Source: a virus
Strand: one strand, 5' to 3'
Length of the DNA stretch: 64,000 nt
IMG/VR virus record: IMGVR_UViG_3300045747_000527
Coordinates: 1-64,000 of that record
Of the stretch, positions 34,423 to 57,325 are shown piece after piece. The notes below the pieces were generated by a model. It worked only from the letters and a program-made list of their open reading frames with translations. It did no database searches and was not told the origin of the DNA. The translations under genes were made by a program, and so were the position numbers. The stretch's first letter is position 1. Every line of letters begins with the position of its first letter.

Positions 34423-34430
34423 GGTATAAG
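34423..34430 (+). promoter_or_regulatory. GGTATAAG promoter-like motif
   Basis: Intergenic, upstream of AAGGAG RBS and ATG 34480. Confidence 0.7.
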
Positions 34431-34479
34431 TATTATGATCCAGAAGAACACTTATCTGGAACCACCACAAGGAGCCCCC

Positions 34480-34686
34480 ATGGAAAACATCGAGATTCAA
34501 CCTGGACACGGATTCTTCTCCCACATCGTCGGCACCAACAACGTCAACGGAACGACCTCGAAGGTCGCCAACGTCGCTGGCCGTGCAGCTCTCGTAGGCG
34601 CCGCGGTCTACGGCGGCATCAAGCTGTTCAGCAAGGACGAGCCGGTGGCCCTGGACGTGACGGTCGGCGGCTTCGAGCCGGCGTAG
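34480..34686 (+). CDS. small protein with one hydrophobic segment (68 aa)
   Basis: MENIEIQPG...AALVGAAVYGGIKLF; has its own promoter motif and terminator. Confidence 0.65.
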   Translation: MENIEIQPGHGFFSHIVGTNNVNGTTSKVANVAGRAALVGAAVYGGIKLFSKDEPVALDVTVGGFEPA

Positions 34687-34692
34687 GAAGAT

Positions 34693-34721
34693 GGGCCCAC
34701 AGGGGCCCTTTCCTTTAGCCC
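34693..34721 (+). terminator. hairpin terminator with TTTCCTTTAGCCC tail
   Basis: GGGCCC-acag-GGGCCC (same acag loop as 193-221) then TTTCCTTTAGCCC; overlaps the convergent terL stop. Confidence 0.7.
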
Positions 34722-36550
34722 AAGTTCTCCGAGAGCCCTGACTCCTGCACAGGCAGGATGATGTCATCCCTGCGGGTAACCAAAATGGACGCCAATACGC
34801 AGAGCAGGATGGCGTGAAAAGCATCGTCCGTCTTACCTGGTGGCTTCTTGAACTCGTTCATCCTCAGCCGGTCATTGTACTCCGTGAAGATGTTGAGAAT
34901 GTCCTGGCCGTGGGGATTCTGAAAGTCTTCCCAGCAGGGCAGATCAATCTTCTTTGCCTTCATGGCGTTGAAGATGTCGCTCATGATTTCTGTGCGGTGG
35001 CACATGTATCTGAGAAGGCTCGCATCCCAATAGATCTTTTTGCGCTGCCTCGGATTGTACTGGTACTTTGCCACGCGCCGCGGACCAAAGGCCTTGATGA
35101 GCTTGTCGTTCTGGTAGTGACCTCCACCGTAGTCGGTGCCGGTTACCTGGACGTTCAGCTGGCTCAGAATCTGGATGATGCTGTCCAGCTGCTTCTCGGG
35201 GTCCAAGTCTCGTCCCATGAACCGGTGAATCCAGAAGATGGTGAAGTTTCCAGTCCCCAAGTACCCGCCAAGCGCGATGGTGGTGTATGACGCCCGCTCT
35301 CCCGGACCCCAGTCGATGCCGGCGAATATTTGCCTGCCTTGGGCGAGCTCTCTGAACGCCTCGATGTCCACCAGCCGCACCGATGGGTTGCAGATGGCCT
35401 GCAGCTGAGCCCGCGTAATAGGACGAACGCCGGAGTCGTAGGACATGCCCAGCTTCTCGTTCATAAACTGGGCGCGCGAGTACTGCTCCTGTGCTTGAAG
35501 AACCTCTCCCCAGTCAACCCAGGGGACCATGATCTGAGGAATGCGGTAGCCCTCAAATGTGATCTTATCCGTGTTAGCTTCCGCGGGATTCATCGAAGCC
35601 CACATCGCCTGCGGATGCCGAGCTGAGATGAGGTTGCCGCACTTGTCACAGATAAGGCCCTCCTTCCCGATGCTCCGCTCCGTGAGCACGTTCCAGTGCC
35701 AAGTACTGGAGTCGTTGGGACCACCGTGCCGCTCGCAGGGGACCACCCACTCGTTTTGGGTCGAGAATTCGGACCAGTAGTGCTGGATGGTGTTGTCTAC
35801 AGACTTGGGCGTACCGGAGTAGAGGAACAGCTTGTAGCTAGAGTGGAAAGCGCACTGCTCGATGACGGGGATGTTGTCCACCATGATATCTTGGATCTCA
35901 TCGATAAGAACCAAGTCAGCCGGGATACCACGGACACGGTCAGCCGTGAGGTACGCGTACCTAAGTCTGATCTGAGAAAAGTTGATGAACTTCTTGAAGA
36001 AGACGGCTTGGTTTGCTGAGGAGGCGGTGTACGCCTTCAACATTGGCGACGCATCGATAACGTCCTTGATACGGTCATTCGAGAAGACCTTCGCCTGTTC
36101 CGCGGAAGGTGCTACGTACAGCGACCGAAAGTTGTTGGTCAAAGCTGAGTAGCACAAAAGCCGGTTGCCTAGCGTAGTTGATTTCTCGATCTGACGTCCG
36201 CACATAAGCAAAAGCTTCTTGGCGTCAGTATCGTAGATTTTCTGGAGGTACTCCCGCCCCTTGAATGAGAAGTCCGTCACGCGGCCAGCCTCAGGGACTC
36301 TGATGGCTGTCTCTGCAAACTGCGAAGGGGAGACTGAGATCAGCGCATCCTCGGTAGACTCATACGCATCGAAGGCCACCTCCTGTTCCGCCAAGAGACT
36401 CTCAGCAAAGTCCGGGTCATACTCCGGGCTGTCTACGTCGAACACAGAGAAGTCAACGTAAGGGGAGGGCTCTCCTGTGTACGAAGATCCTAGTTTCGTG
36501 TAACGCGCACCTGCCTGTGTTCTGACGCTGTCAAGAGGGACGATGGCCAT
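34715..36550 (-). CDS. terL: terminase large subunit (GpA-like)
   Basis: Walker A CGRQIEKSTTL, Walker B LVLIDEIQD, zinc motif VPCERH...CDKCG, nuclease motifs FAGIDWG and DDAFHA. Confidence 0.9.
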   Translation of the reverse strand: MAIVPLDSVRTQAGARYTKLGSSYTGEPSPYVDFSVFDVDSPEYDPDFAESLLAEQEVAFDAYESTEDALISVSPSQFAETAIRVPEAGRVTDFSFKGREYLQKIYDTDAKKLLLMCGRQIEKSTTLGNRLLCYSALTNNFRSLYVAPSAEQAKVFSNDRIKDVIDASPMLKAYTASSANQAVFFKKFINFSQIRLRYAYLTADRVRGIPADLVLIDEIQDIMVDNIPVIEQCAFHSSYKLFLYSGTPKSVDNTIQHYWSEFSTQNEWVVPCERHGGPNDSSTWHWNVLTERSIGKEGLICDKCGNLISARHPQAMWASMNPAEANTDKITFEGYRIPQIMVPWVDWGEVLQAQEQYSRAQFMNEKLGMSYDSGVRPITRAQLQAICNPSVRLVDIEAFRELAQGRQIFAGIDWGPGERASYTTIALGGYLGTGNFTIFWIHRFMGRDLDPEKQLDSIIQILSQLNVQVTGTDYGGGHYQNDKLIKAFGPRRVAKYQYNPRQRKKIYWDASLLRYMCHRTEIMSDIFNAMKAKKIDLPCWEDFQNPHGQDILNIFTEYNDRLRMNEFKKPPGKTDDAFHAILLCVLASILVTRRDDIILPVQESGLSENLG

Positions 36551-36572
36551 GCGAAACTCTTTCGAAAAGTGG

Positions 36573-36580
36573 GGTATAAG
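36573..36580 (+). promoter_or_regulatory. GGTATAAG promoter-like motif
   Basis: 22 nt from the terL start codon, divergent from it; GCGAAA 18 nt before TATAAG. Confidence 0.7.
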
Positions 36581-36586
36581 ATCAAT

Positions 36587-36717
36587 AGCAGGGAGAACTA
36601 CTCCTCTGCATGAACCGCAGGAGATGATGATGGAACACTCTAAGGCCGCTCAACTGAATACGCAGAGTGAAAAACATCATCCCAGCTTGGCCGGCGAAAG
36701 CCGGCTTTCATTAGCCC
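36587..36717 (+). ncRNA. candidate structured small RNA (~130 nt)
   Basis: Bounded by a promoter motif and a terminator; three predicted stems (36588-36609, 36626-36681, 36690-36705); no ORF of meaningful length ends inside it. Confidence 0.5.
36690..36717 (+). terminator. hairpin terminator with TTTCATTAGCCC tail
   Basis: GCCGGC-gaaa-GCCGGC (GNRA loop) then TTTCATTAGCCC. Confidence 0.75.
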
Positions 36718-37217
36718 TATGACAGTTGGCTGAACAAGCGGGACATCAGCATGTCCTGCGCTGTCGCAGTCCAGGCCGTAGGAAGAATGGGCTTGGCCAC
36801 TACCACGGACCAGCTGTCTACCTCAGGATCGAAGACCACCTTCGGTGTCTCTCGAAAGAATGAAGAGAACTCGTGCTGCAACTTTTCCCCTATGCCGCCC
36901 CACCAGGGGTACTTGGATAGGTGCTCCGTCAACTGGTCGTCTAGCTGGGCCAGCCGCCTAGGATTATCCGGAGATTGACTGGCCTCCTGCAGCGCCTCTG
37001 CGACCAGGCGCTTTCTCTCAACATGATAGATGTGGAAGATCAATCTGTTGCCACGCTCGGTGTACTCCACCAGAAGATTCCCCTTCTGCATTGGGGTGAA
37101 CACTGGCACGGAGTTGGCAAGTTTCCGGGCGGACGTTAGATCTTGTGGGGCCGTGGCCAAAGCCGCAGCTCCGCGTACCTCGTGGTGCGTGAGTGGCACC
37201 CTCGATGCATGGGACAT
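36717..37217 (-). CDS. hypothetical protein
   Basis: 166-aa ORF, AGGAGG RBS. Confidence 0.7.
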   Translation of the reverse strand: MSHASRVPLTHHEVRGAAALATAPQDLTSARKLANSVPVFTPMQKGNLLVEYTERGNRLIFHIYHVERKRLVAEALQEASQSPDNPRRLAQLDDQLTEHLSKYPWWGGIGEKLQHEFSSFFRETPKVVFDPEVDSWSVVVAKPILPTAWTATAQDMLMSRLFSQLS

Positions 37218-40184: not shown

Positions 40185-41340
40185 TGATCAGAACTTTTCT
40201 AGATAGCATAGCAGGCGTTGGCGGGTCTACCTTGATTCCCACCGTCGCGAGTGTTGTCACAAGGTTCAGCAGCCATGGCACTACGATATCACCATGCAGG
40301 GCGGGATGAGAAGCGTTTGGGCCGCCAAGAAATAAAGCAGAGGCCCCGATTGTCTTCACCCCTGTCCAACTCTCAGTGCTTCCTCCTCCGCCACTGATCT
40401 TATGTTCGCCAGAGATGTCTGTGCTCTGTGAACCTTTCACCGTCGTGGTGTGGTCCTTTCCAACTGACAGAGAGCAGTTCCCTGAGATGGTATTAGTCTG
40501 ATCGCCGCCTACCTCGACTGTCAGATCTGAGGAGTACTTCGTGTACCCGACGCCGGTATTGAAGACTCGCATGACATAGGCTGGCTTCGCACTGATAGTC
40601 TCGCCGGTCGTGGGGTTTATCCCACCCGCAGCCACTACTACTTCGTAGTCTGCACCAGACTTGGCAACCGTACCTACACTGATACGAACTGACGCCTTCT
40701 CATCCTGAGCAGCTTCTCTCGCGATAAGATCGAACTGTACCGCCTGGTGTTGGTTGTCCGGTCCTGTGTCTGCGACCGCAGCTCGCCAGGTCATTGAGCC
40801 ACCAACTGTGTCAAGTTCCCAGTTCTCGCATACATCCCGGATAAGGTTGTTGAGTGGAATGAAGAGGCGCTGACAGATGTCAGAGGCCCCAATCTGCAGA
40901 ACACCACCACGACGCAGGACTAGGAAGTTGTCATCCCTTCCCTGGATATATAGATCTCCAGGGTTCAGAAGAGGTCGTCCAGCGTTGTACCCGCCCATCG
41001 AAGGCTGGTCTGCCGACTGTGGAGAGCCTGATGCCACTGTCATAGCCGGCTCCGGTGGCTCCAAGAATCCCATAACAAACGGAGCCTCCCCGTCTGCTGG
41101 CCAACATACGGCGCAGATAGCACCAAGGTCTGGTATGACCGTGAACCCTTCACCGTTGTTGTAGTGTAGGTACGGGGAGGATACCTGAATACCGGGAACC
41201 AGACGTCCAGTGTACTGTGCTGCCCAGTCCACGGTCTTGTTGACTGGGTTGACGTTAACGATCAACCCAGTTTCTACCCGCGTCTCTCCCGTTACGGTAG
41301 ACGATGCCCTGGAATTACCGAAGCTATACGCGCCAGCCAT
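40177..41340 (-). CDS. tail spike / baseplate puncturing protein (gpV/gp5/VgrG-like)
   Basis: N-terminal OB-fold-like GLIVNVNPVNKTVD...GEGFTVIPDLGAICAV; C-terminal beta-helix repeats VGGDQTNTISGNCSLSVGKDHTTTVKGSQSTDISG. Confidence 0.7.
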   Translation of the reverse strand: MAGAYSFGNSRASSTVTGETRVETGLIVNVNPVNKTVDWAAQYTGRLVPGIQVSSPYLHYNNGEGFTVIPDLGAICAVCWPADGEAPFVMGFLEPPEPAMTVASGSPQSADQPSMGGYNAGRPLLNPGDLYIQGRDDNFLVLRRGGVLQIGASDICQRLFIPLNNLIRDVCENWELDTVGGSMTWRAAVADTGPDNQHQAVQFDLIAREAAQDEKASVRISVGTVAKSGADYEVVVAAGGINPTTGETISAKPAYVMRVFNTGVGYTKYSSDLTVEVGGDQTNTISGNCSLSVGKDHTTTVKGSQSTDISGEHKISGGGGSTESWTGVKTIGASALFLGGPNASHPALHGDIVVPWLLNLVTTLATVGIKVDPPTPAMLSRKVLISD

Positions 41341-44300
41341 CAGTACTCTCCTGGCTTGCCCCTACCAAACTCTGCGGCATAGGCGATGGCAGGGATCGGG
41401 TGTGGGCCGTGAATGTGGGAAGTCCAGCCACGTTGAGCGGCGTCTATGACGGTATCATGCAGCCGCTCATGGTTGAGTTTCGCCATCCAATCTTCTTGAA
41501 CTTCCAGAGGCATCATGTCCACCCCCTTCAGCAAAGGCTTGTGAAGCACTGGCTTCTGCCCCACGGCAAGGGACCTGTTGTGCGCCACCACCTGAGATGT
41601 CGGAGCATAGTCGCCCCGAATGAAGTGGGTAGAAGACCCTGGGTGCAACACCTCCGTAAGATTGGTGACCGCCTTCACCACCACCTCAGCATTCCGCCGT
41701 CTGATGCCCTCACTCTTGTACCGGTCATACAATGCCCCTGCTAGATGTCCCTGTGTGTGCTCGATGCCGGTGAGCTCCAGCAACTCGTGCGGATTGACGG
41801 GCCCTCCAGAAATGGCACTCCCCTTCTTCACATCCATCCCCTTCTTGAGCGGTGACCCGTCGTACATAGGTACGCCGCGCGAGTTGGGAACGTAGTGGCG
41901 GCGACCATCAACGATCACGTCATGACCACCAGCCGGGTCCTTCCGTATCTCCTCCACCTTTCCAGTGACAGCACTGAGCGTAGCCGAACCAGGCAATACC
42001 TTCGGCAAATTCAGCAGGTCCTGCACCTGCTGGAAATCATCCGTGAGACCAGACTTGGACGCAGCCGATCCGCCCGTATGAAAGGCCTTCATGGCGAGCT
42101 GAACCGACCTCTCACCCAACGCCTGACCTGCGAGGATGCCGATGTTCGTCCCCACTGGCGGCAGATGACCGTCACTGTCCAGCCCGAAACACTTCTGGCA
42201 AATACCGGGGCCGTGCAAGCAGCGCAGCGGTGACCTGACCACTACCTTGCCTACCTTATTGTTGCGAAGAGTACTTTTGATCTCAGGAGTTATCAGTGTT
42301 CCAGCCGGGAGGGTTCGGCTGCCAACCTTGATGGGCGCTGCTGTGTACCGGTCAAGTATGTCCCTCTCGTCCACGTCCAAAGAGATACCCTTGTCAGTGC
42401 CGCAGTCATTGTCCTTCACCAGCGTGTCCATCGTGGTGTTCATGACCATCTTGCTGATGTACCCAGGCTCGCTGACCGATTGCACCTTTTGGATCGCCCC
42501 TTTACGAGCGCCGCTCACCGACGTCCAGTACTCTGATACGTCCAAGCCTTCTGCATATGACTTGCGGATAGGCGTGGGGAGCACACGCCCCTTGGCGTCC
42601 ATGACCAGCATCGGAGACATCTTGATCTGACGGAGAGTATCCATACCGGGCTTGACCCCTGCACGGTGCATGGTCATCAAGTTGCTGCTCTCGTCCGTCA
42701 TCTTATCCAGGGCCGCGTGCATCGTCTCTGTAGCCTTCGTGTACGCAGCGATACTGTGCGCGTCTCGTTTCTCCGCGGAGCCTGTGCCCTTCTTGGCCTC
42801 AATATCTGCAACCGCGAGTATCTTGTCCCGCAGCGCTCGGTCTGGGGTCACATCTGACAACCCAAGGGAGAACGAACTCTGAGTAGACCACGCGTTACCT
42901 AGGTCCTTCAGCTTGTTGACGACAACCCCGTACTCGTTCTTGTGCTCCCGTGCCAGCTTGTCCAGCAGCGCATCCTGTGCCTTGCCGTTCAGTACGGATG
43001 TGCTGGTGAGAACCTCCTTGCGCATAACCTCCGGCAGTGCACCAGCCAATAGGAAACGCCCAACCGAAGCCTTGATACCAGAGATTGTGATCACATCATT
43101 CAGGCGCGCTTCCCCCTTTCGTACGGCAGTCTCCACCTCCTGGATGGTCTTGAACGACTTGCCAGTATCCGTGCCGGCTTTCGATATGCCGTACAGGCCC
43201 AGCTTCATCTCGTGCGTGGGTGAGTACATCACCCTGCCCGTAGACGGGCTAAACAGATTGTGGGAGGGCATCATCCCCCGCGCCTCTGTTACCGCCTGTG
43301 CTGACACAGGAACGAACGCACCCATGGCATCACCGTCGAAGTCTGCGTTGAATCCCGACGTAACCAACGGGTGTATCTGGATGGTACGCCCGCTCACGAT
43401 GCGTGGCTTGAACGCCTGCACACTGTATTTGTGCAAGACCGGGTCTCTTTTCACCAAGATAGGTCGGTCAGAGATGACCCGCTCTAGCGCGCGATCAACC
43501 ATCTCTCCGCCCTTCTCAATCTGCGCACGGGCTGCCAGTGGAGAGATGCCCTGCAAGTTGCGCAACTCCTTGATGATGAACGGTTTGTAGAGCTCGATAG
43601 CCGCGGGCTTAGGGATACCCACCTCGTCCAGACCCAGTGAAGGTTCGGGTACGATGGTGGAGCGCATCGTTAGATCTTGCTTCCGCTGTATCAGCTTGCT
43701 CTGGAAGAAGCCCTGTTTCGGCGCACCAGACTTCTCCCCTGTCTCAGTATCCACCACTCGCTTGCCGGCTATGATGTCCAAGATGCCGCGACGAACCTGC
43801 TTAGGGTACCCGCCAATACCAGTCAGGGCGTGCAGACCATCGTGGATTTCCTCACGCAAAGCAACCTTCGCCTCATCATCGTCCGGGATAAGCGGCGACA
43901 TCTCCTTGTACTTCTGCGAAGACAGGTGAATGTACTTGTACAACCCGTTCAGATCATCCTCGCTGATGCGCTTGCCATCCGAGACAGAAAGCGGCCGCAT
44001 AGCCGGGGGCAAGATGGGCACGTGGCTCATCATGTACGCATCTTGCGGAGTCAGCTTTGCCCTCTGAAGGGCAGTCAAGAACTTGATCGTCTTGTTCGCG
44101 TCGTCCAGCTTGGCCCCCTTCAAAGCGGGCTTCTCAATCTCAAGCCGAGCAGCCGCGAGTGCCTTGTCCACGCTGATGTTACCAAGCAGGTGGTTCACTG
44201 CCTTGCCGCCCACCATTGCCCCTGGAGATTCTACGGGAACTACCTTGCCTGTCTTATCCACAGCGACTCGGCCGGCGACCAAGTCAGTGTACGTGGTCCC

Positions 44301-47300
44301 CTTCATGCCGAGTAACGTACGAGTTGCTCCCGCGAACAGAGGATTGGGGAACGGCTCCGGCAAAGTCATGTGCGACCACATGGTGCCGTCCAAGCCGCCG
44401 GTAATCCGCGGGTCGAAGAGGCCATCCTTTTCGGGCACCATGTTCTTTGCGCGGACCCATTTGGCAGGGTTTTTGATCTCCCCGTTACTCTGCTCTAAAA
44501 CCTGCTTGTCCGTCATCGGCACCATCGTGAGGTTGCTGCCCTCCTTCTTGACGTTGACCCCGACACCCTTCAGGTACGCCATGAACTTGTTGTAGGAGAA
44601 CGTAGGCCGCGGAGCCGGAAGCATCTCACCTGCCTGAAGGGCATGCCAAAACTGGTCGTGCTGACCTGCATCGCTCTTCATCGTGTACATCTCGCGCAGG
44701 TTATGGACCGCGCCATGGGCCAACATGGCGTACAACCCTAGCGCGCCCAGCGACTGGGCTCCGTGTGGGCCACCGCCCTTAGGCACCATACTGCTGTCGT
44801 AGGCGTAGCCGGGGCCGCCGGCGCGAGCAATCATCTTCTTGTCCACCTGGTGAACCAGCTTGACGATGTGTTGTGGGCCCACCAGCACCTGACCCATGAC
44901 CTTCCCGGTCGTAGGGTCTACTATGTCCTCCTTGTCCGGAAGTCCGTGCGCCTTGAGCTCGTCTGTGACTTTTTGGTGCAGGTCTACGCCAGGCTCGAAG
45001 TTCTTAATGAAGTAGGTCTTGCCGGTCTTCTCTGCAATCTTTCCGGCAGAGACCTCCAACAGCTGTCCCAAGTTAGTGCGGCCGGGAACACCTGCAGGGT
45101 TAAGTAAGATCTCCGTGGGCCTGCCATCCAAGGTATGTGGCATCTCGTGATCGGCAAGGATCTTAGTCACGATCCCCTTGTTTCCGTGGCGACCTGCTAA
45201 CTTATCCCCGACCTCCATAGGTTGGAGTGTCTTCACGTGGACCGCCACAGCGTGGCCTGTCTTGGACACCTCCTGGACGATACCTGGGTGGTCTGCCTCC
45301 CACTTCATCGAGACGTCCTTGAACGGCTTAACGATGGACTTGTGCAGCTTGGACAGGTCCGCGTCTTCCCGGCGCTCGTTTTCGTTCTTCTGCTGAAGGG
45401 CAGCGATCAATGTGTCGCCTGGCATGACGATGTGTCCTTCGCGAACAACGCCGTCATCATCCAGCTTATCCGCCTGCTCCTTGTTCAAGGCCGCGGGTGC
45501 ATAGGCACGAAACTTCCTCTTGTCTAGGACATGCCCGGTATCCCGGCTGATCTCATGGCGGTACAAGTGCTCTGAAGACAGCTTCTTCGCCGCGGTCTCG
45601 CTGATGACAACGCCGTCCTCGAAGTTGTATCCCTTGTACGGCATGTAGGCCACGCGCAGATTAGTGCCCAGCGCCAGGTTGCCGCCCTTAGTGTAGTTGG
45701 TGTCCGCTACCACCTGGCCCTTCGTAACCTTGTCGCCTACTCCTACAAGAGGCTCTGAGTGGATGAACACACGGTCCGTGTTCAGTGGGAAGTTATCGTA
45801 GAGCTGGACCTCATGCTTCTTCCCCTTGACGTCCTCAATGATAATCCCGTCCTTCTTGATCTTGGTGACGACACCATCATGCTGGCTGTTGTGACTAGCG
45901 TACGCGCCCACTATCCTCTCGAAGCTGTCCTTACCCGCCAGGCTCTGCACCAGGGGCGCTTCCCTATCCTTCAGAGAGATGGCTTGCTCCATGTGCCGGC
46001 CCGCCATAGTAGTACGGTTAGGGTGGTCTGCTCCCATGAACGGGATCATATTAGTGGACGTAGAAAACAGCTGGATCGGGTCAAGCATAACGTAATCCGC
46101 TTCGTGCAGAGGCGCAGATACGATTTCGTTACCCACGCCACTCATGCGGATGTTCTTGGCTACCGCTACCGGCTTGCCCTTAGCCCACGTAACCTGATCT
46201 GGCAGCACCACCTTGGTGCGCATGACCTGACTAGGTGTGATCTCAGTCTGCTTGCCCGTCTTTGTGTCATAGACCCGCATGGTAATATCGTGGCCGCGCT
46301 TGCTGATACCTACGGGCATTCGCAAACTGATGCCGACATCCTGTCCTTCGGACGTGTGCAGCGGGTCCATGAACCCCATGTGTGACGGGTCTACTAGCTT
46401 AGCGTCGTCCGACACAACGTGAAAATCTGAGATGCCTCCCTTACCCATGATGGTGGTTTTCATCTGGTTAGAGATCATCTCAAGCGGGTTCAGCTGACTG
46501 GGTGTGTTTGCCAAACCGCTGTTGCCCGTGAACAAGGACCTTACGGACTTGTTGAACACGTCGGGGCCAATGATATCGCGGATGCCTCTGTCTGGTCGGT
46601 CGATGGTGTTCTTGACCTTACGTGTGATCTCTCTGGCTCCGTTCTGTACCCGCTCCGCCACAAAGTCCTCCACAGAATGCAGGTCCTTGAACATGAGTGA
46701 GTCGCGCGGGTCAGACTTGGCTGTGCCGCGGGAGATGCCTAACAGCTTATTCGACGCCGCTAAGATCGCTTCCCCACTAGCATTCGCGTATGGATGCCCG
46801 AGGGTGACCTGGTTGACGTCAGGGCGCGATCCAGTGTTCTGGAACACCTCCTGGGTAACAGACTGTGCTGTCTCGGGGTTAGGCGCCTTTTGCCCCGTAG
46901 CTATTTCGTGGAATCTAGACAGAGTCTTGTTCGCGTCAGCTGCGTTCGCGTCTACGATCTCCTTACCCCAGTGTTTCTCAAGTTCATCTGGGTGAATCCC
47001 CAGACCCTGTAGCATCGGAGCCAACGGCAGGTGCTTGCCCTCGTACTCCATCTGGAACTTCTTGCTCTCGGGATCGAAGTGCAGCTTGAACGGGCGCCCC
47101 TTCACTCCGGCAGTGTTGAAGCTGGTCTCCAACGACCCGTCATCCTTGACCATGGAGTATGCACCAGCCTTCAAACGCCACTGGTTGTCTACCTGGTACT
47201 CCTTGCCATCGATAATGTGGCTGAGCCTGCGCGTACTCTTGGGCAGGTCCATCAGCTTGATCTTCTTTTTCTCGATAACGTGGCCAGTAGCGTTATCCTT

Positions 47301-47519
47301 CAGAGCAATCGTAGCCTGCACCGGCACGGTCCAGCTTTTCCCCTGAATCTTGGCTTCCTTCTGCGACCGGATATCATCCAGGTCCAGGTTGTCTGGGATG
47401 CTGATATCGTGAAGCTCAAGAGTTCGCGTGTTCCCTATGATGGGGAAGATGCTCTTGGTTGCCTCAGTTACCTTGTCCTTCAGTACGGTGAAACCAGTTT
47501 CTGGGTTTAGACGCGCCAT
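41340..47519 (-). CDS. rpoBC: DNA-directed RNA polymerase, single-chain beta-beta' fusion (2059 aa)
   Basis: beta motifs PFMGADHPNR..MAGRHMEQA and GDKLAGRHGNKG; beta' motifs KRDPVLH, NADFDGD (43329-43349), GARKG, GERSVQLAMKAFHTGG and a C-terminal 4-Cys zinc site. Confidence 0.95.
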   Translation of the reverse strand: MARLNPETGFTVLKDKVTEATKSIFPIIGNTRTLELHDISIPDNLDLDDIRSQKEAKIQGKSWTVPVQATIALKDNATGHVIEKKKIKLMDLPKSTRRLSHIIDGKEYQVDNQWRLKAGAYSMVKDDGSLETSFNTAGVKGRPFKLHFDPESKKFQMEYEGKHLPLAPMLQGLGIHPDELEKHWGKEIVDANAADANKTLSRFHEIATGQKAPNPETAQSVTQEVFQNTGSRPDVNQVTLGHPYANASGEAILAASNKLLGISRGTAKSDPRDSLMFKDLHSVEDFVAERVQNGAREITRKVKNTIDRPDRGIRDIIGPDVFNKSVRSLFTGNSGLANTPSQLNPLEMISNQMKTTIMGKGGISDFHVVSDDAKLVDPSHMGFMDPLHTSEGQDVGISLRMPVGISKRGHDITMRVYDTKTGKQTEITPSQVMRTKVVLPDQVTWAKGKPVAVAKNIRMSGVGNEIVSAPLHEADYVMLDPIQLFSTSTNMIPFMGADHPNRTTMAGRHMEQAISLKDREAPLVQSLAGKDSFERIVGAYASHNSQHDGVVTKIKKDGIIIEDVKGKKHEVQLYDNFPLNTDRVFIHSEPLVGVGDKVTKGQVVADTNYTKGGNLALGTNLRVAYMPYKGYNFEDGVVISETAAKKLSSEHLYRHEISRDTGHVLDKRKFRAYAPAALNKEQADKLDDDGVVREGHIVMPGDTLIAALQQKNENERREDADLSKLHKSIVKPFKDVSMKWEADHPGIVQEVSKTGHAVAVHVKTLQPMEVGDKLAGRHGNKGIVTKILADHEMPHTLDGRPTEILLNPAGVPGRTNLGQLLEVSAGKIAEKTGKTYFIKNFEPGVDLHQKVTDELKAHGLPDKEDIVDPTTGKVMGQVLVGPQHIVKLVHQVDKKMIARAGGPGYAYDSSMVPKGGGPHGAQSLGALGLYAMLAHGAVHNLREMYTMKSDAGQHDQFWHALQAGEMLPAPRPTFSYNKFMAYLKGVGVNVKKEGSNLTMVPMTDKQVLEQSNGEIKNPAKWVRAKNMVPEKDGLFDPRITGGLDGTMWSHMTLPEPFPNPLFAGATRTLLGMKGTTYTDLVAGRVAVDKTGKVVPVESPGAMVGGKAVNHLLGNISVDKALAAARLEIEKPALKGAKLDDANKTIKFLTALQRAKLTPQDAYMMSHVPILPPAMRPLSVSDGKRISEDDLNGLYKYIHLSSQKYKEMSPLIPDDDEAKVALREEIHDGLHALTGIGGYPKQVRRGILDIIAGKRVVDTETGEKSGAPKQGFFQSKLIQRKQDLTMRSTIVPEPSLGLDEVGIPKPAAIELYKPFIIKELRNLQGISPLAARAQIEKGGEMVDRALERVISDRPILVKRDPVLHKYSVQAFKPRIVSGRTIQIHPLVTSGFNADFDGDAMGAFVPVSAQAVTEARGMMPSHNLFSPSTGRVMYSPTHEMKLGLYGISKAGTDTGKSFKTIQEVETAVRKGEARLNDVITISGIKASVGRFLLAGALPEVMRKEVLTSTSVLNGKAQDALLDKLAREHKNEYGVVVNKLKDLGNAWSTQSSFSLGLSDVTPDRALRDKILAVADIEAKKGTGSAEKRDAHSIAAYTKATETMHAALDKMTDESSNLMTMHRAGVKPGMDTLRQIKMSPMLVMDAKGRVLPTPIRKSYAEGLDVSEYWTSVSGARKGAIQKVQSVSEPGYISKMVMNTTMDTLVKDNDCGTDKGISLDVDERDILDRYTAAPIKVGSRTLPAGTLITPEIKSTLRNNKVGKVVVRSPLRCLHGPGICQKCFGLDSDGHLPPVGTNIGILAGQALGERSVQLAMKAFHTGGSAASKSGLTDDFQQVQDLLNLPKVLPGSATLSAVTGKVEEIRKDPAGGHDVIVDGRRHYVPNSRGVPMYDGSPLKKGMDVKKGSAISGGPVNPHELLELTGIEHTQGHLAGALYDRYKSEGIRRRNAEVVVKAVTNLTEVLHPGSSTHFIRGDYAPTSQVVAHNRSLAVGQKPVLHKPLLKGVDMMPLEVQEDWMAKLNHERLHDTVIDAAQRGWTSHIHGPHPIPAIAYAAEFGRGKPGEY

Positions 47520-54646: not shown

Positions 54647-54654
54647 GGTATAAG
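54647..54654 (+). promoter_or_regulatory. GGTATAAG promoter-like motif
   Basis: Upstream of the replication block; GGCAAA 17 nt before TATAAG. Confidence 0.7.
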
Positions 54655-54695: not shown

Positions 54696-55073
54696 ATGTC
54701 ATTTGCCGACCGAATCGGAGTATCTGCCCCAGTAGAGAAACCCAGCTGCTGGGGAAACAAGAACGCCTTTGACCCGGAGGATAGCGACTGCTCTGAGTGT
54801 AGGTTCCAGAACAGCTGTCGCCAAGAAGTAGGCGCCAAGCAGCGCGTCTACCAGGTCGGGGTCAACCAAGCACCACGACCATCCATTCCGCAGACGTCCT
54901 ACCGCCCCAACTACCAAGCACACCCAAACGACACGTACCCAACCTGGGCTCCGGGTCCCACGCACGAAAATGACCGACCCCTAGCTCGACTCGCAAAGGA
55001 TGTTGCCGTAGGCGGCCTCCATGGATTAGGCCTACAGTTCGTTCGGTTCTTCTCCGTGTGGAGAATGAAATAG
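54696..55073 (+). CDS. protein with N-terminal 4-Cys zinc finger
   Basis: CWGNKNAFDPEDSDCSECRFQNSC; AGGAG RBS. Confidence 0.7.
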   Translation: MSFADRIGVSAPVEKPSCWGNKNAFDPEDSDCSECRFQNSCRQEVGAKQRVYQVGVNQAPRPSIPQTSYRPNYQAHPNDTYPTWAPGPTHENDRPLARLAKDVAVGGLHGLGLQFVRFFSVWRMK

Positions 55074-55081
55074 GAGACAGT

Positions 55082-57325
55082 ATGAACAGAGATCCAGACC
55101 TCGGCTACTACGGGCGCAACCTGTGGTTGCCTAAGAAACACGTCAACGTCCGCAGTGTCAAAGCCGGCCTGGAGTTCCCCGTCATGGGGGAGAAAGGAAT
55201 CGAGTACCTCCAGCTGTGGACAGATAGGAGCACGCATCTTGTAGTACCAAGGGAGTTCATCCGTCGAACGATGTACCCGTCACTGCCGTTCAAGATCGTT
55301 CCGGTCCTTCCTGCATCATACAGGCAGGTAAAATTCAAAGAGAACATCACTCTGGACATCAAGGACCCCACCCAGGACATCCAGAAGAACGCGTTCAAAG
55401 CGTACATGGCTGCCGACTGCGGCATCCTGAACCTAGCCTGTGTCTCGGGAAGTGCCCTAATCGACCTGAATAGAGCGGGTAAGGGCTTCAGCATAAACCT
55501 GCGAGATGCCTACGAAAGGTTCAACGGATTAGCCGCAAAGCACAACTGGGATCAAACAATACCCACCTTCGTGAGATCAAATAAGGGAAAACAAGTAGGG
55601 CTACAGAGAGTGGCGGCCATGCTCTACAAAGGCAAGCGCCGTACGTACACGCTGCGCCTAAGAAACGGAATGACCTTACGTGCTACTGGAGATCACGAGA
55701 TACAAGTCGAAGAAAATAAGTACGTCCCACTGCGCGAACTCGCTCCTGGAGACTCCGTACTGATAGACTCAGATCGCACAGAGTCCATTCGAAAGCCAAA
55801 AGAGGCGTATCGGAGGCTTAGCTGGTACCCCAGTCACCCCTTCGTACGAGTACAAAAACGAACAAGACCCTCAGGCAAGATAGACCTGTGCTGCCAGATA
55901 GAAGAACACCGCATTGTGGCTGAGTGCGCCCTCAACAAAATAGGAAGCATCAAGGGGTATCGGGCCCTGTTCAAGACAGGCAAGATTGCGGGACTGCAAT
56001 TTATCGATCCTGCCCTTTTCCACGTACATCACATCGACGAGAACAAAAGAAACAACTCCCCGGACAACCTAGAGATACTGCCGGCAGAGGAACACAGAGC
56101 CCACCACTCTATGGGGGCCGAGGCATTTGGATACGGAATACCAACAGCTAGAGAAATAGAGTCCATCACTCCCTTTGGGATGGAAGACGTCTACGACATC
56201 GTGTGTGACGATCCGCACCACAACTTCACGGCTAACAAGATCATAGTACACAATTGTGGCAGGGGCAAAACGGCGCTGACTCTCAAGCGAATAGCAGCAC
56301 GAGGAGTACCCGCCCTCGTGATCATGAATAACACCACACTCATAGGGCAGTGGGGAAAAAGTATTGAACAGTTCTTGGAGGTGGAAGGAGGCGTGGGCAT
56401 AGTCCAAGGCCCGCCCGATACCTGGGACTGGCACGACCGGGGCATCGTGCTGGCCTCCCTCATGTCCGTGGCCATTCGGTACCAGGAGTTACCCGTTGGT
56501 TTCTCCTCCTACTTTGGTGACATCTACTACGACGAAGTCCACCACTTATCTGCTGAAGTGTTCTCCCGTGCCGCGCCCATGTTCTACGGCAAACGGTACG
56601 GGCTGACTGCAACCCCAAAGAGAGAAGACGGGCTAGAGCTGGTGTACCAGTACAACATCGGCCCAGTATTCCATCGATACTTGATCCAGGACCTGACTCC
56701 GAAAATCTTCTTCCACTTGAACCCAGTCAAGCTGAACATGCTCAGTGCGGATGTGAAGTTTGCCATCTCAGACAAGAACGGCAAACCCTGCCTACCTAAG
56801 CTGCGGTCGTACCTGGGCACCATGCCGGAGAACAATAGGTACATCGCCAAAGAAACCAAACGAGCCCTGGCCAAGGGCCGCAAGATACTGGCTCTGAGTC
56901 ACAGCGTAGACCAGCTCGTCACTCTCCACAAAATGTTCAGAGGGTCCGGGCTCTGCATAGGCGACGTAAAGGACATCAACCTTCGTCTGAAGGCCCTGCG
57001 GGAATGCCAATTGACCTTCGGGACACTCGATCTAGTGCGAGAGGGGCTAGACGAAGACACGCTAGACACAATCTTCTTCCTCACACCGTTCGGGAGCAAG
57101 GACATAGTAGACGGGGGCAAGAACACTTTCCAGCAGGGCATGGGGCGTGCTCTTCGCCCACGCAAAGACAAAAGGCAACCTGTGATCACGGTATTCGACT
57201 ACCTGTACATCCCTAAGCTGCACCAGCAGTGCAACAAAATGAAGCAGTTATTGAAGGAGTGGCCTGTCGATGAGGGCGGTCCATTTGAGTTTGAGGTAAT
57301 CAAAGCGTACGAGGAGATCAAATGA
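55082..57325 (+). CDS. superfamily 2 DNA helicase (UvsW/XPB-like), intein-interrupted
   Basis: Spliced motif I LA-CGRGKT, motif II YYDEVHH, motif III GLTATP, motif V EGLDEDTLD, motif VI QQGMGRALR; start MNRD after AGGAG. Confidence 0.85.
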   Translation: MNRDPDLGYYGRNLWLPKKHVNVRSVKAGLEFPVMGEKGIEYLQLWTDRSTHLVVPREFIRRTMYPSLPFKIVPVLPASYRQVKFKENITLDIKDPTQDIQKNAFKAYMAADCGILNLACVSGSALIDLNRAGKGFSINLRDAYERFNGLAAKHNWDQTIPTFVRSNKGKQVGLQRVAAMLYKGKRRTYTLRLRNGMTLRATGDHEIQVEENKYVPLRELAPGDSVLIDSDRTESIRKPKEAYRRLSWYPSHPFVRVQKRTRPSGKIDLCCQIEEHRIVAECALNKIGSIKGYRALFKTGKIAGLQFIDPALFHVHHIDENKRNNSPDNLEILPAEEHRAHHSMGAEAFGYGIPTAREIESITPFGMEDVYDIVCDDPHHNFTANKIIVHNCGRGKTALTLKRIAARGVPALVIMNNTTLIGQWGKSIEQFLEVEGGVGIVQGPPDTWDWHDRGIVLASLMSVAIRYQELPVGFSSYFGDIYYDEVHHLSAEVFSRAAPMFYGKRYGLTATPKREDGLELVYQYNIGPVFHRYLIQDLTPKIFFHLNPVKLNMLSADVKFAISDKNGKPCLPKLRSYLGTMPENNRYIAKETKRALAKGRKILALSHSVDQLVTLHKMFRGSGLCIGDVKDINLRLKALRECQLTFGTLDLVREGLDEDTLDTIFFLTPFGSKDIVDGGKNTFQQGMGRALRPRKDKRQPVITVFDYLYIPKLHQQCNKMKQLLKEWPVDEGGPFEFEVIKAYEEIK
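55439..56254 (+). mobile_element. intein (272 aa) with HNH endonuclease domain
   Basis: Starts CVSG; block B LRATGDHEI; HVHHIDENKRNNSPDNLEIL..EEH..HH; block F VYDIVCDDPHHNF; ends IVHN before +1 Cys. Confidence 0.9.

Follow-up and report, generated by a model that had tools for sequence, protein, structure and literature searches.

The 166-nt spacer between the large terminase gene (terL) and its neighbour, here called gene X, holds a short transcription unit that we propose as a candidate new phage RNA family. The spacer lies in a 64,000-nucleotide stretch of viral DNA (positions 1 to 64,000 of IMG/VR record IMGVR_UViG_3300045747_000527; hereafter the window), and sequence features give good support for an independent promoter-to-terminator unit at 36573–36716 on the phage's + strand, with a predicted transcript of ~125 nt. 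The likeliest product would be a short, stable, folded RNA of about this length that is not usefully translated, one of a positionally conserved, ORF-less set of 120–240 nt in relatives of this RNA polymerase-encoding phage. We put the probability that the unit specifies a cis-acting non-coding RNA at roughly 40%; we infer its transcription, the timing of that transcription and every mechanistic step described below from the sequence. Each element that an earlier, sequence-only reading of this DNA had described in the spacer (promoter motif, stems, terminator hairpin, tail and a small ORF) was found in its place on checking against the sequence.

The source virus record is 191,220 bp long, and its 10–54 kb region is a block of − strand late/virion genes, including those for a gp5-like baseplate protein, a head maturation protease and TerL. 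terL itself (34715–36550, − strand; 611 aa; Pfam GpA_ATPase, E 5e-15) diverges from the unit, whilst gene X (36717–37217, − strand; 166 aa), which has no family in Pfam or PHROG, converges on it, such that the gene X stop codon (36717–36719) directly follows the terminator tail. Elsewhere in the block, a single 2059-aa ORF (41340–47519, − strand) matches Pfam Rpb2 domain 6 (Rpb2_6) followed by Rpb1 domains 1, 2, 3 and 5; its product is a fused beta-beta′ RNA polymerase encoded within the late/virion block.

The putative promoter begins with A-rich upstream elements at 36553–36569 (GAAAC, 36553–36557; GAAAAG, 36564–36569), which overlap the 5′ flank of terL and, at the motif level, suggest a bipartite promoter. 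These are followed by a −10-like core, GGTATAAG (36573–36580), located 22 nt from the terL ATG (36550–36548, − strand), as the sequence-only reading had also noted. The unit then extends over 36587–36716. Its 5′ hairpin, P1 (36588–36609), begins ~8 nt downstream of the −10-like motif and pairs 36588–36595 with 36601–36609 (8 bp, one bulged T and a 5-nt loop). The long interrupted hairpin P2 (36623–36681) consists of 7 bp plus 6 bp and a 22-nt apical loop: in its outer helix GATGATG (36626–36632, or one repeat earlier at 36623–36629) pairs with CATCATC (36675–36681), and in its inner helix CACTCT (36636–36641) pairs with AGAGTG (36664–36669). The apical loop contains CAACTGAAT (36650–36658), which encodes Q-L-N in the frame of the small ORF. 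This ORF, together with its Shine–Dalgarno (SD) sequence, spans 36619–36722 and comprises AGGAG (36619–36623), three ATGs, 30–32 codons and a TGA at 36720–36722. The terminator (36690–36716) consists of a GCCGGC-GAAA-GCCGGC hairpin (36690–36705) and the tail TTTCATTAGCC.

The promoter motif belongs to a strongly oriented set. GGTATAAG occurs 12 times in the window, on the + strand in 12 of 12 cases, against 0.43 occurrences expected, and across the whole 191-kb genome it is found 28 times on the + strand and 5 times on the − strand. At most of these 33 copies, and also in relatives, an A-tract lies 13–16 nt 5′ of the motif, and most copies precede an SD and start codon by 25–55 nt; the copy at 54647 lies at the front of a replication operon (helicase, UDG, DnaB, primase). 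A generic sigma-70 scan called no promoter at the site of the unit, so GGTATAAG is a phage-specific motif and not a canonical −35/−10 pair. On these motif-level grounds, GGTATAAG is assigned to the phage's early/middle-type promoter class, distinct from the sigma-70 consensus. At the other end of the unit, a hairpin with a T-rich tract and TAGCC tail is the typical end of + strand units (~10 clear terminators in the genome), and a generic terminator scan flags the unit's hairpin on the + strand.

The phage's own GGTATAAG-to-TAGCC units resemble the candidate in promoter motif and terminator tail. One of these (34423–34721, + strand) is a gene of ~66 aa whose GGTATAAG promoter is followed by a 5′ hairpin and an SD, and whose terminator has a TTAGCC tail that includes the stop codon of the convergent terL gene. 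The unit beside terL differs from such genes in that its transcribed body is only ~105 nt, its ORF, if used, crosses the terminator, and its counterparts in relatives are mostly ORF-less. A second ORF-less GGTATAAG unit is present in the same genome (G000) outside the window, at 172418–172560; it has the same start, GGTATAAGATCAAT, and a 5′ hairpin, after which come ~135 nt of structured body, a GAAA-capped hairpin and then TTTCTTTTGCCC; the unit converges on a − strand terminator at 172560. At G000 152196 (− strand), a GGTATAAG promoter leads directly into a hairpin of 13 bp (−23.8 kcal/mol, z −5.2) and a T-run, which precede the SD and GTG of the next gene in an attenuator-like layout.

The claim that the unit is structured was borne out. 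The + strand of 36573–36717 folds to −49 kcal/mol, compared with −34.7 ± 3.7 for shuffled sequences (z −3.82), with none of 200 shuffles equalling it, and the unit body without the terminator gives z −3.8. In the predicted fold, the SD and the first two ATGs of the small ORF are paired inside P2. The first 40 nt, which contain P1, fold to −11.8 kcal/mol (z −2.3), one of the most stable folds in the 33 GGTATAAG promoter-proximal regions. The median fold of these regions (−5.1 kcal/mol, z 0.07) is no better than that of random 40-mers, and the idea that P1 exemplifies a generic 5′ stabiliser of all GGTATAAG transcripts was rejected.

A search of the entire window against Rfam at gathering thresholds returned no match, and at E ≤ 10 a search of 36400–36900 gave only a chance snoRNA match outside the unit, in keeping with the suggestion that the RNA is novel. 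The same searches bear on the earlier proposal of a prohead/packaging RNA or an RNA polymerase-binding RNA, which they do not favour: neither a pRNA nor a 6S RNA match was obtained at E ≤ 10, including with the 6S covariance model (RF00013). The phi29-family pRNA (RF00044) is likewise a structured phage RNA (~120–170 nt), but the unit is linked to packaging by position only, matches no covariance model and has no conserved intermolecular loop pair, and the phage encodes a canonical TerL. The position beside terL, the phage's own RNA polymerase gene and the recurrence of the palindrome GCCGGC in loops of some relatives are the features that would fit a phi29 pRNA-like packaging RNA or a 6S-like RNA; no loop sequences are conserved across clades, and we regard this assignment as most improbable.

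In order to define the unit comparatively, relatives were collected by TerL searches (16 IMG/VR loci, 10 metagenome loci and 41 IMG/VR loci, with some contigs recovered repeatedly), by targeted fetches and from gene X homologues. Their TerL identities are 56–87%. GGTATAAG is exactly kept, antisense to terL, at 26 relatives' loci, and 25 relatives have the complete unit in the same place and orientation, with the motif 22–40 nt from the terL start and the elements in the order motif, 5′ hairpin, linker, long central hairpin and terminator beside the gene X stop. The terminator is nearly invariant (a CCGGC-GNRA-GCCGG hairpin plus a TTAGCC tail); a 5′ hairpin occupies the P1 position in all 25, with differing sequences; and a long hairpin equivalent to P2 is present in the ORF-less clades. 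Gene X homologues flank the unit in all relatives. The clade carrying such units comprises uncultivated phages of 110–190 kb with a fused beta-beta′ RNA polymerase; GenBank phages yielded no DNA match, and the TerL relatives found there are <30% identical. The slot can also be reduced or empty: L025 (87% TerL identity) keeps the promoter with a body of only ~30 nt ahead of gene X, and in L008 and L047 gene X abuts terL and the unit is missing.

Among 21 non-redundant copies (20 relatives and the window), 18 bodies have z-scores below −2, with a median near −3.8 and values down to −6.8, and no ORF is common to the 21. Neither a comparable ORF nor an SD plus ATG was found in 20 relatives outside the window's subclade, where the unit is best read as noncoding. 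Body sequences are unalignable between clades, and MAFFT/RNAalifold alignments across clades recover P1 and the terminator only; in alignments of close relatives, pairing in both of these helices is maintained by G-U changes on one side and by a few compensatory changes. Several more specific elements were sought and set aside. A pseudoknot joining the linker to the P2 loop, to which GCCAGC/GCTGGC and CCCTCC/GGAGGG complementarity points in some relatives, is significant only in L005 (median z −0.4). CCUCC-like motifs that might act as an anti-SD seed are unpaired in only ~4 relatives, and are fewer than SD-like words (17 vs 32). The best complementary stretches to possible trans targets in the phage genome are 11–13 nt long (E ≥ 0.07), none of them credible, and no conserved single-stranded seed was found in the unit across relatives.

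In a further explanation, selection acts only on the divergent promoter, through competition or occlusion at terL, and on the terminator that shields gene X, the body being a drifting spacer and the RNA functionless. In agreement with this, sequence conservation across clades is confined to the promoter and terminator, body length varies from ~30 nt (L025) to 240 nt, the body has no conserved seed, pseudoknot or anti-SD motif, and a divergent GGTATAAG promoter likewise lies 57–75 bp from each of the other two − strand operon heads in the window, although those promoters drive real genes. A drifting spacer would not, however, be expected to be far more structured than its shuffles in 18 of 21 copies, nor to carry stable GNRA or UUCG caps, as do the bodies of L027, L028 and L074. 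P1 is moreover present in the 25 full-unit relatives, yet most other GGTATAAG units have no comparable 5′ hairpin (median z 0.07). Taken together, the structured bodies, the internal GNRA/UUCG caps and the kept P1 argue for selection on the RNA, and we consider a functionless body unlikely.

The directional features of the unit (promoter motif, T-rich terminator tail and tetraloops) all favour the window's + strand. GNRA or UUCG sequences occupy 18 of 38 four-base loops on the unit's strand compared with 1 of 38 on the other strand; 14 of the 18 are the homologous terminator loop, the GNRA of which is readable on the + strand only, and the other four cap P1 or P2 independently in L027, L028 and L074. 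An alternative is that the other strand, or the DNA itself, is functional, as a processing or stability element of the late mRNA or as a packaging/recognition site. The − strand of the unit also folds (z −2.2), the terL-sense strand has the lower free energy in several relatives, and the element adjoins terL. Internal helix mismatches are equally tolerated as G.U and A.C (10 vs 10; 11 G.U vs 15 A.C in a strand-symmetric fold) and favour neither strand. On the other hand, with composition controlled the sense-strand z-scores are not better, the free energies and z-scores of the two strands being mixed across relatives; read in the terL sense, the hairpin is not followed by a U-tract; and repeats typical of pac or cos sites are lacking. 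Given also the directional features, function of the other strand or of the DNA is very unlikely.

The window's own subclade presents a different picture. Its nearest relatives by gene X (L078, L079, L080 and L082/83; 54–65% identity) have in common with the window the 5′ end GGTATAAGATCAATAGCAGGGAG, the terminator and a 9-nt motif, CAAYTGAAT; the window's version of the latter, CAACTGAAT, is the sole body sequence kept in these relatives, and its mean unpaired probability in the window is 0.84. The bodies of L078, L079, L080 and L082 are not significantly structured (z −2.0, −0.5, −0.4 and −1.4, respectively), and the GATGATG/CATCATC pairing of P2 is absent from all four. Each of the four has a start codon at the window's position, opening a short ORF, with SD-like motifs that are mostly weak or poorly spaced. 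A profile search of IMG/VR with gene X found no further subclade members, and a DNA pattern search with the 5′ end gave only chance matches in AT-rich phages.

These observations raise the possibility that the unit is a small + strand gene of the usual kind, whose product would be a hydrophilic peptide of ~30 residues and in whose mRNA P2 would limit translation or be incidental. In the window, AGGAG and the ATGs at 36624, 36627 and 36630 have canonical SD-to-start spacing (6 nt to the third ATG), a layout as in other GGTATAAG units, and a start codon occurs at the matching position in five of five subclade members, some with an SD-like motif; P2 is, as above, absent from the nearest relatives. 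A weakly conserved in-frame motif, QLN followed by 4–5 residues and [HF]H[PD]S, is common to the window, L078 and L082 (three of the five sequences), with synonymous differences at Ala (GCT/GCA), Leu (CTG/TTG), His (CAT/CAC) and Pro (CCC/CCA), a Ser that switches codon families (AGC/TCT/TCA) and a one-codon indel. L078 and L079 further have MDQ and HEV in common, with third-position changes, and in L082 a stop codon lies ahead of the terminator.

Against a peptide, the L082 stop is the only one so placed. The window ORF (36624–36722) ends, as the sequence-only reading had observed, beyond the terminator, its TGA lying 14 nt past the hairpin, so that a terminated window transcript would have no stop codon; the C-terminal tails of the subclade ORFs cross the terminator in differing frames. 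The L080 frame is restored only by a +1 frameshift, and in L079 the conserved nucleotides fall in a different frame. Three-frame pairwise comparisons favour the ORF frames only weakly, placing them on top in 4 of 10 pairs and by narrow leads (30 vs 28, 20 vs 19 and 23 vs 22). P2 ties up the SD and two of the ATGs, no comparable ORF exists in the 20 relatives outside the subclade, and a profile of the peptide retrieved no small-peptide family from 1.8 billion proteins, its single match being a spurious one to a 963-aa protein with no aligned stretch. A micropeptide gene is a possible reading of the unit, although we are inclined to doubt it. Conservation of the peptide frame in place of the base pairing, which the sequence-only reading had named as counting against a structured RNA, is thus seen in part in the four nearest relatives, whilst most others are structured and ORF-less. 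The window's copy is ambiguous between a regulatory RNA and a ~30-residue peptide. The peptide-like character of the slot in this subclade raises the possibility that the slot alternates between RNA and peptide products over evolutionary time.

The sequence-only reading had further described the unit as antisense to the terminase leader and as complementary to the mRNA segment between gene X and terL. The unit does lie in the spacer, on the strand opposite terL, but leaves the terL start itself uncovered. The predicted RNA start (~36587) lies 37 nt upstream of the terL ATG and the RNA heads away from terL, so it cannot mask the terL start. A cis-antisense RNA is expected to overlap a coding region or ribosome-binding site, whereas the unit overlaps the spacer only. 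As regards the second part, the unit does overlap the spacer, but the spacer would be contained in mRNA only with read-through from gene X, and it is only to such read-through transcripts that the unit RNA would be complementary.

Features of the terL start are also relevant. On the − strand, a tentative late-promoter-like motif of the TTTTCGAAAG type (36558–36568) ends 8 nt before the terL ATG and overlaps the spacer of the + strand promoter. TTTTCGAAAG matches TTTTCGTAAG (54585) at 9 of 10 positions and resembles TTTTGGTAGG (47576), these being motifs at the heads of two other − strand operons, and related motifs (for example CTTGCGGTAGGAT in clade E) lie 6–8 nt before the terL start in relatives. 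From these motifs, terL probably has its own promoter abutting its ATG, in which case there would possibly be no leader for the unit to be antisense to, and two back-to-back promoters would lie within ~5–25 bp of one another. With the RNA running away from the ATG and terL probably having its own promoter, the earlier proposal of an antisense repressor of packaging acting on the terL leader is not upheld. In most relatives terL has no SD (window 36551–36572, − strand, and the 5′ flanks of L001–L082), and the terL 5′ flanks carry a T-tract or a late-promoter-like motif ending 2–8 nt before the start codon; the layout suggests that the terL message is leaderless, or nearly so.

Our preferred reading, a cis-acting non-coding RNA, can be outlined as follows. 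The 36573–36716 (+) segment would be a self-contained mini transcription unit of the early/middle promoter class, made up of an A-tract plus GGTATAAG, P1, a body of ~70 nt (P2) and a GNRA-capped terminator with a T-rich tail ending in TAGCC, placed back-to-back with the terL start and facing the 3′ end of gene X. Its action would most likely be local (in cis), by either or both of two routes. Firstly, with the + strand promoter located 5–25 bp from the terL start or promoter, the two should compete for polymerase. Secondly, the RNA would be perfectly complementary to late transcripts reading through from gene X to terL, and pairing with these could lead to cleavage or to blocked extension. The terminator would stop antisense transcription from entering gene X. 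Extending this outline, the units might constitute an undescribed, positionally fixed family of phage non-coding RNAs, driven by early/middle promoters and timing the entry of transcription into the packaging gene, i.e. an RNA-level timer; we advance this proposal as a speculative one, with odds clearly against it.

Among known kinds, the unit comes closest to the phage cis-antisense small RNAs, which it resembles in outline but from which it differs in lacking the defining overlap. Lambda OOP RNA and the antisense RNAs of PAK_P3 are short RNAs (~80–180 nt) with their own promoter and an intrinsic terminator, which the unit resembles at the motif level, and they are encoded opposite phage genes, as the unit likewise lies opposite the terL strand. 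In the Pseudomonas phage PAK_P3, 15 of 20 antisense RNAs map to the structural region and are produced more strongly at early times (PMC4933390). The unit of the present phage is similarly situated in the late block and has a promoter of the class that also drives replication genes. In contrast to OOP and the PAK_P3 RNAs, it is located in an intergenic spacer and not within a gene, with no overlap of the terL ORF or start; its target, a transcript across the spacer, is assumed; and the window's copy carries an SD-led ORF. The dual-function small RNAs and small-ORF mRNAs of prophages (IsrK type) offer a parallel in concept only, namely that of a short transcript that could work as an RNA and also encode a tiny protein.

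The candidate is defined by position and punctuation, i.e. by a promoter motif, a terminator and a terL-side place common to ~26 metagenomic phages, with most copies strongly folded and ORF-less. To our knowledge, catalogues of small RNAs from lytic phages are poor, and hardly any such RNA has been defined by comparative genomics. Should the RNA prove real, it would provide a seed for a new RNA family model, and a handle on how early/middle and late transcription are split at the packaging gene of a phage that encodes a multisubunit-type RNA polymerase. Caution is warranted for the window's subclade, in which the slot looks more like a micropeptide gene.

Some additional features of these genomes were observed. 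The palindrome GCCGGC, which forms the stem of the unit's terminator, occurs at 45 sites in the whole window compared with 26 ± 5 expected, a count reached by no shuffle, and it recurs in the linkers or loops of the unit in several relatives. At 55058–57325 (+ strand), the window encodes a helicase-like protein (ResIII) that is split by an intein with an HNH endonuclease (Pfam Intein_splicing and HNH_3). In a number of relatives (L042, L045, L046, L052, L066 and L067; L014/L015), the terL frame is open for >800 codons upstream of the TerL match or the match is stretched by ~1 kb of AT-rich DNA, which suggests inteins or homing-endonuclease insertions in the TerL of these phages.
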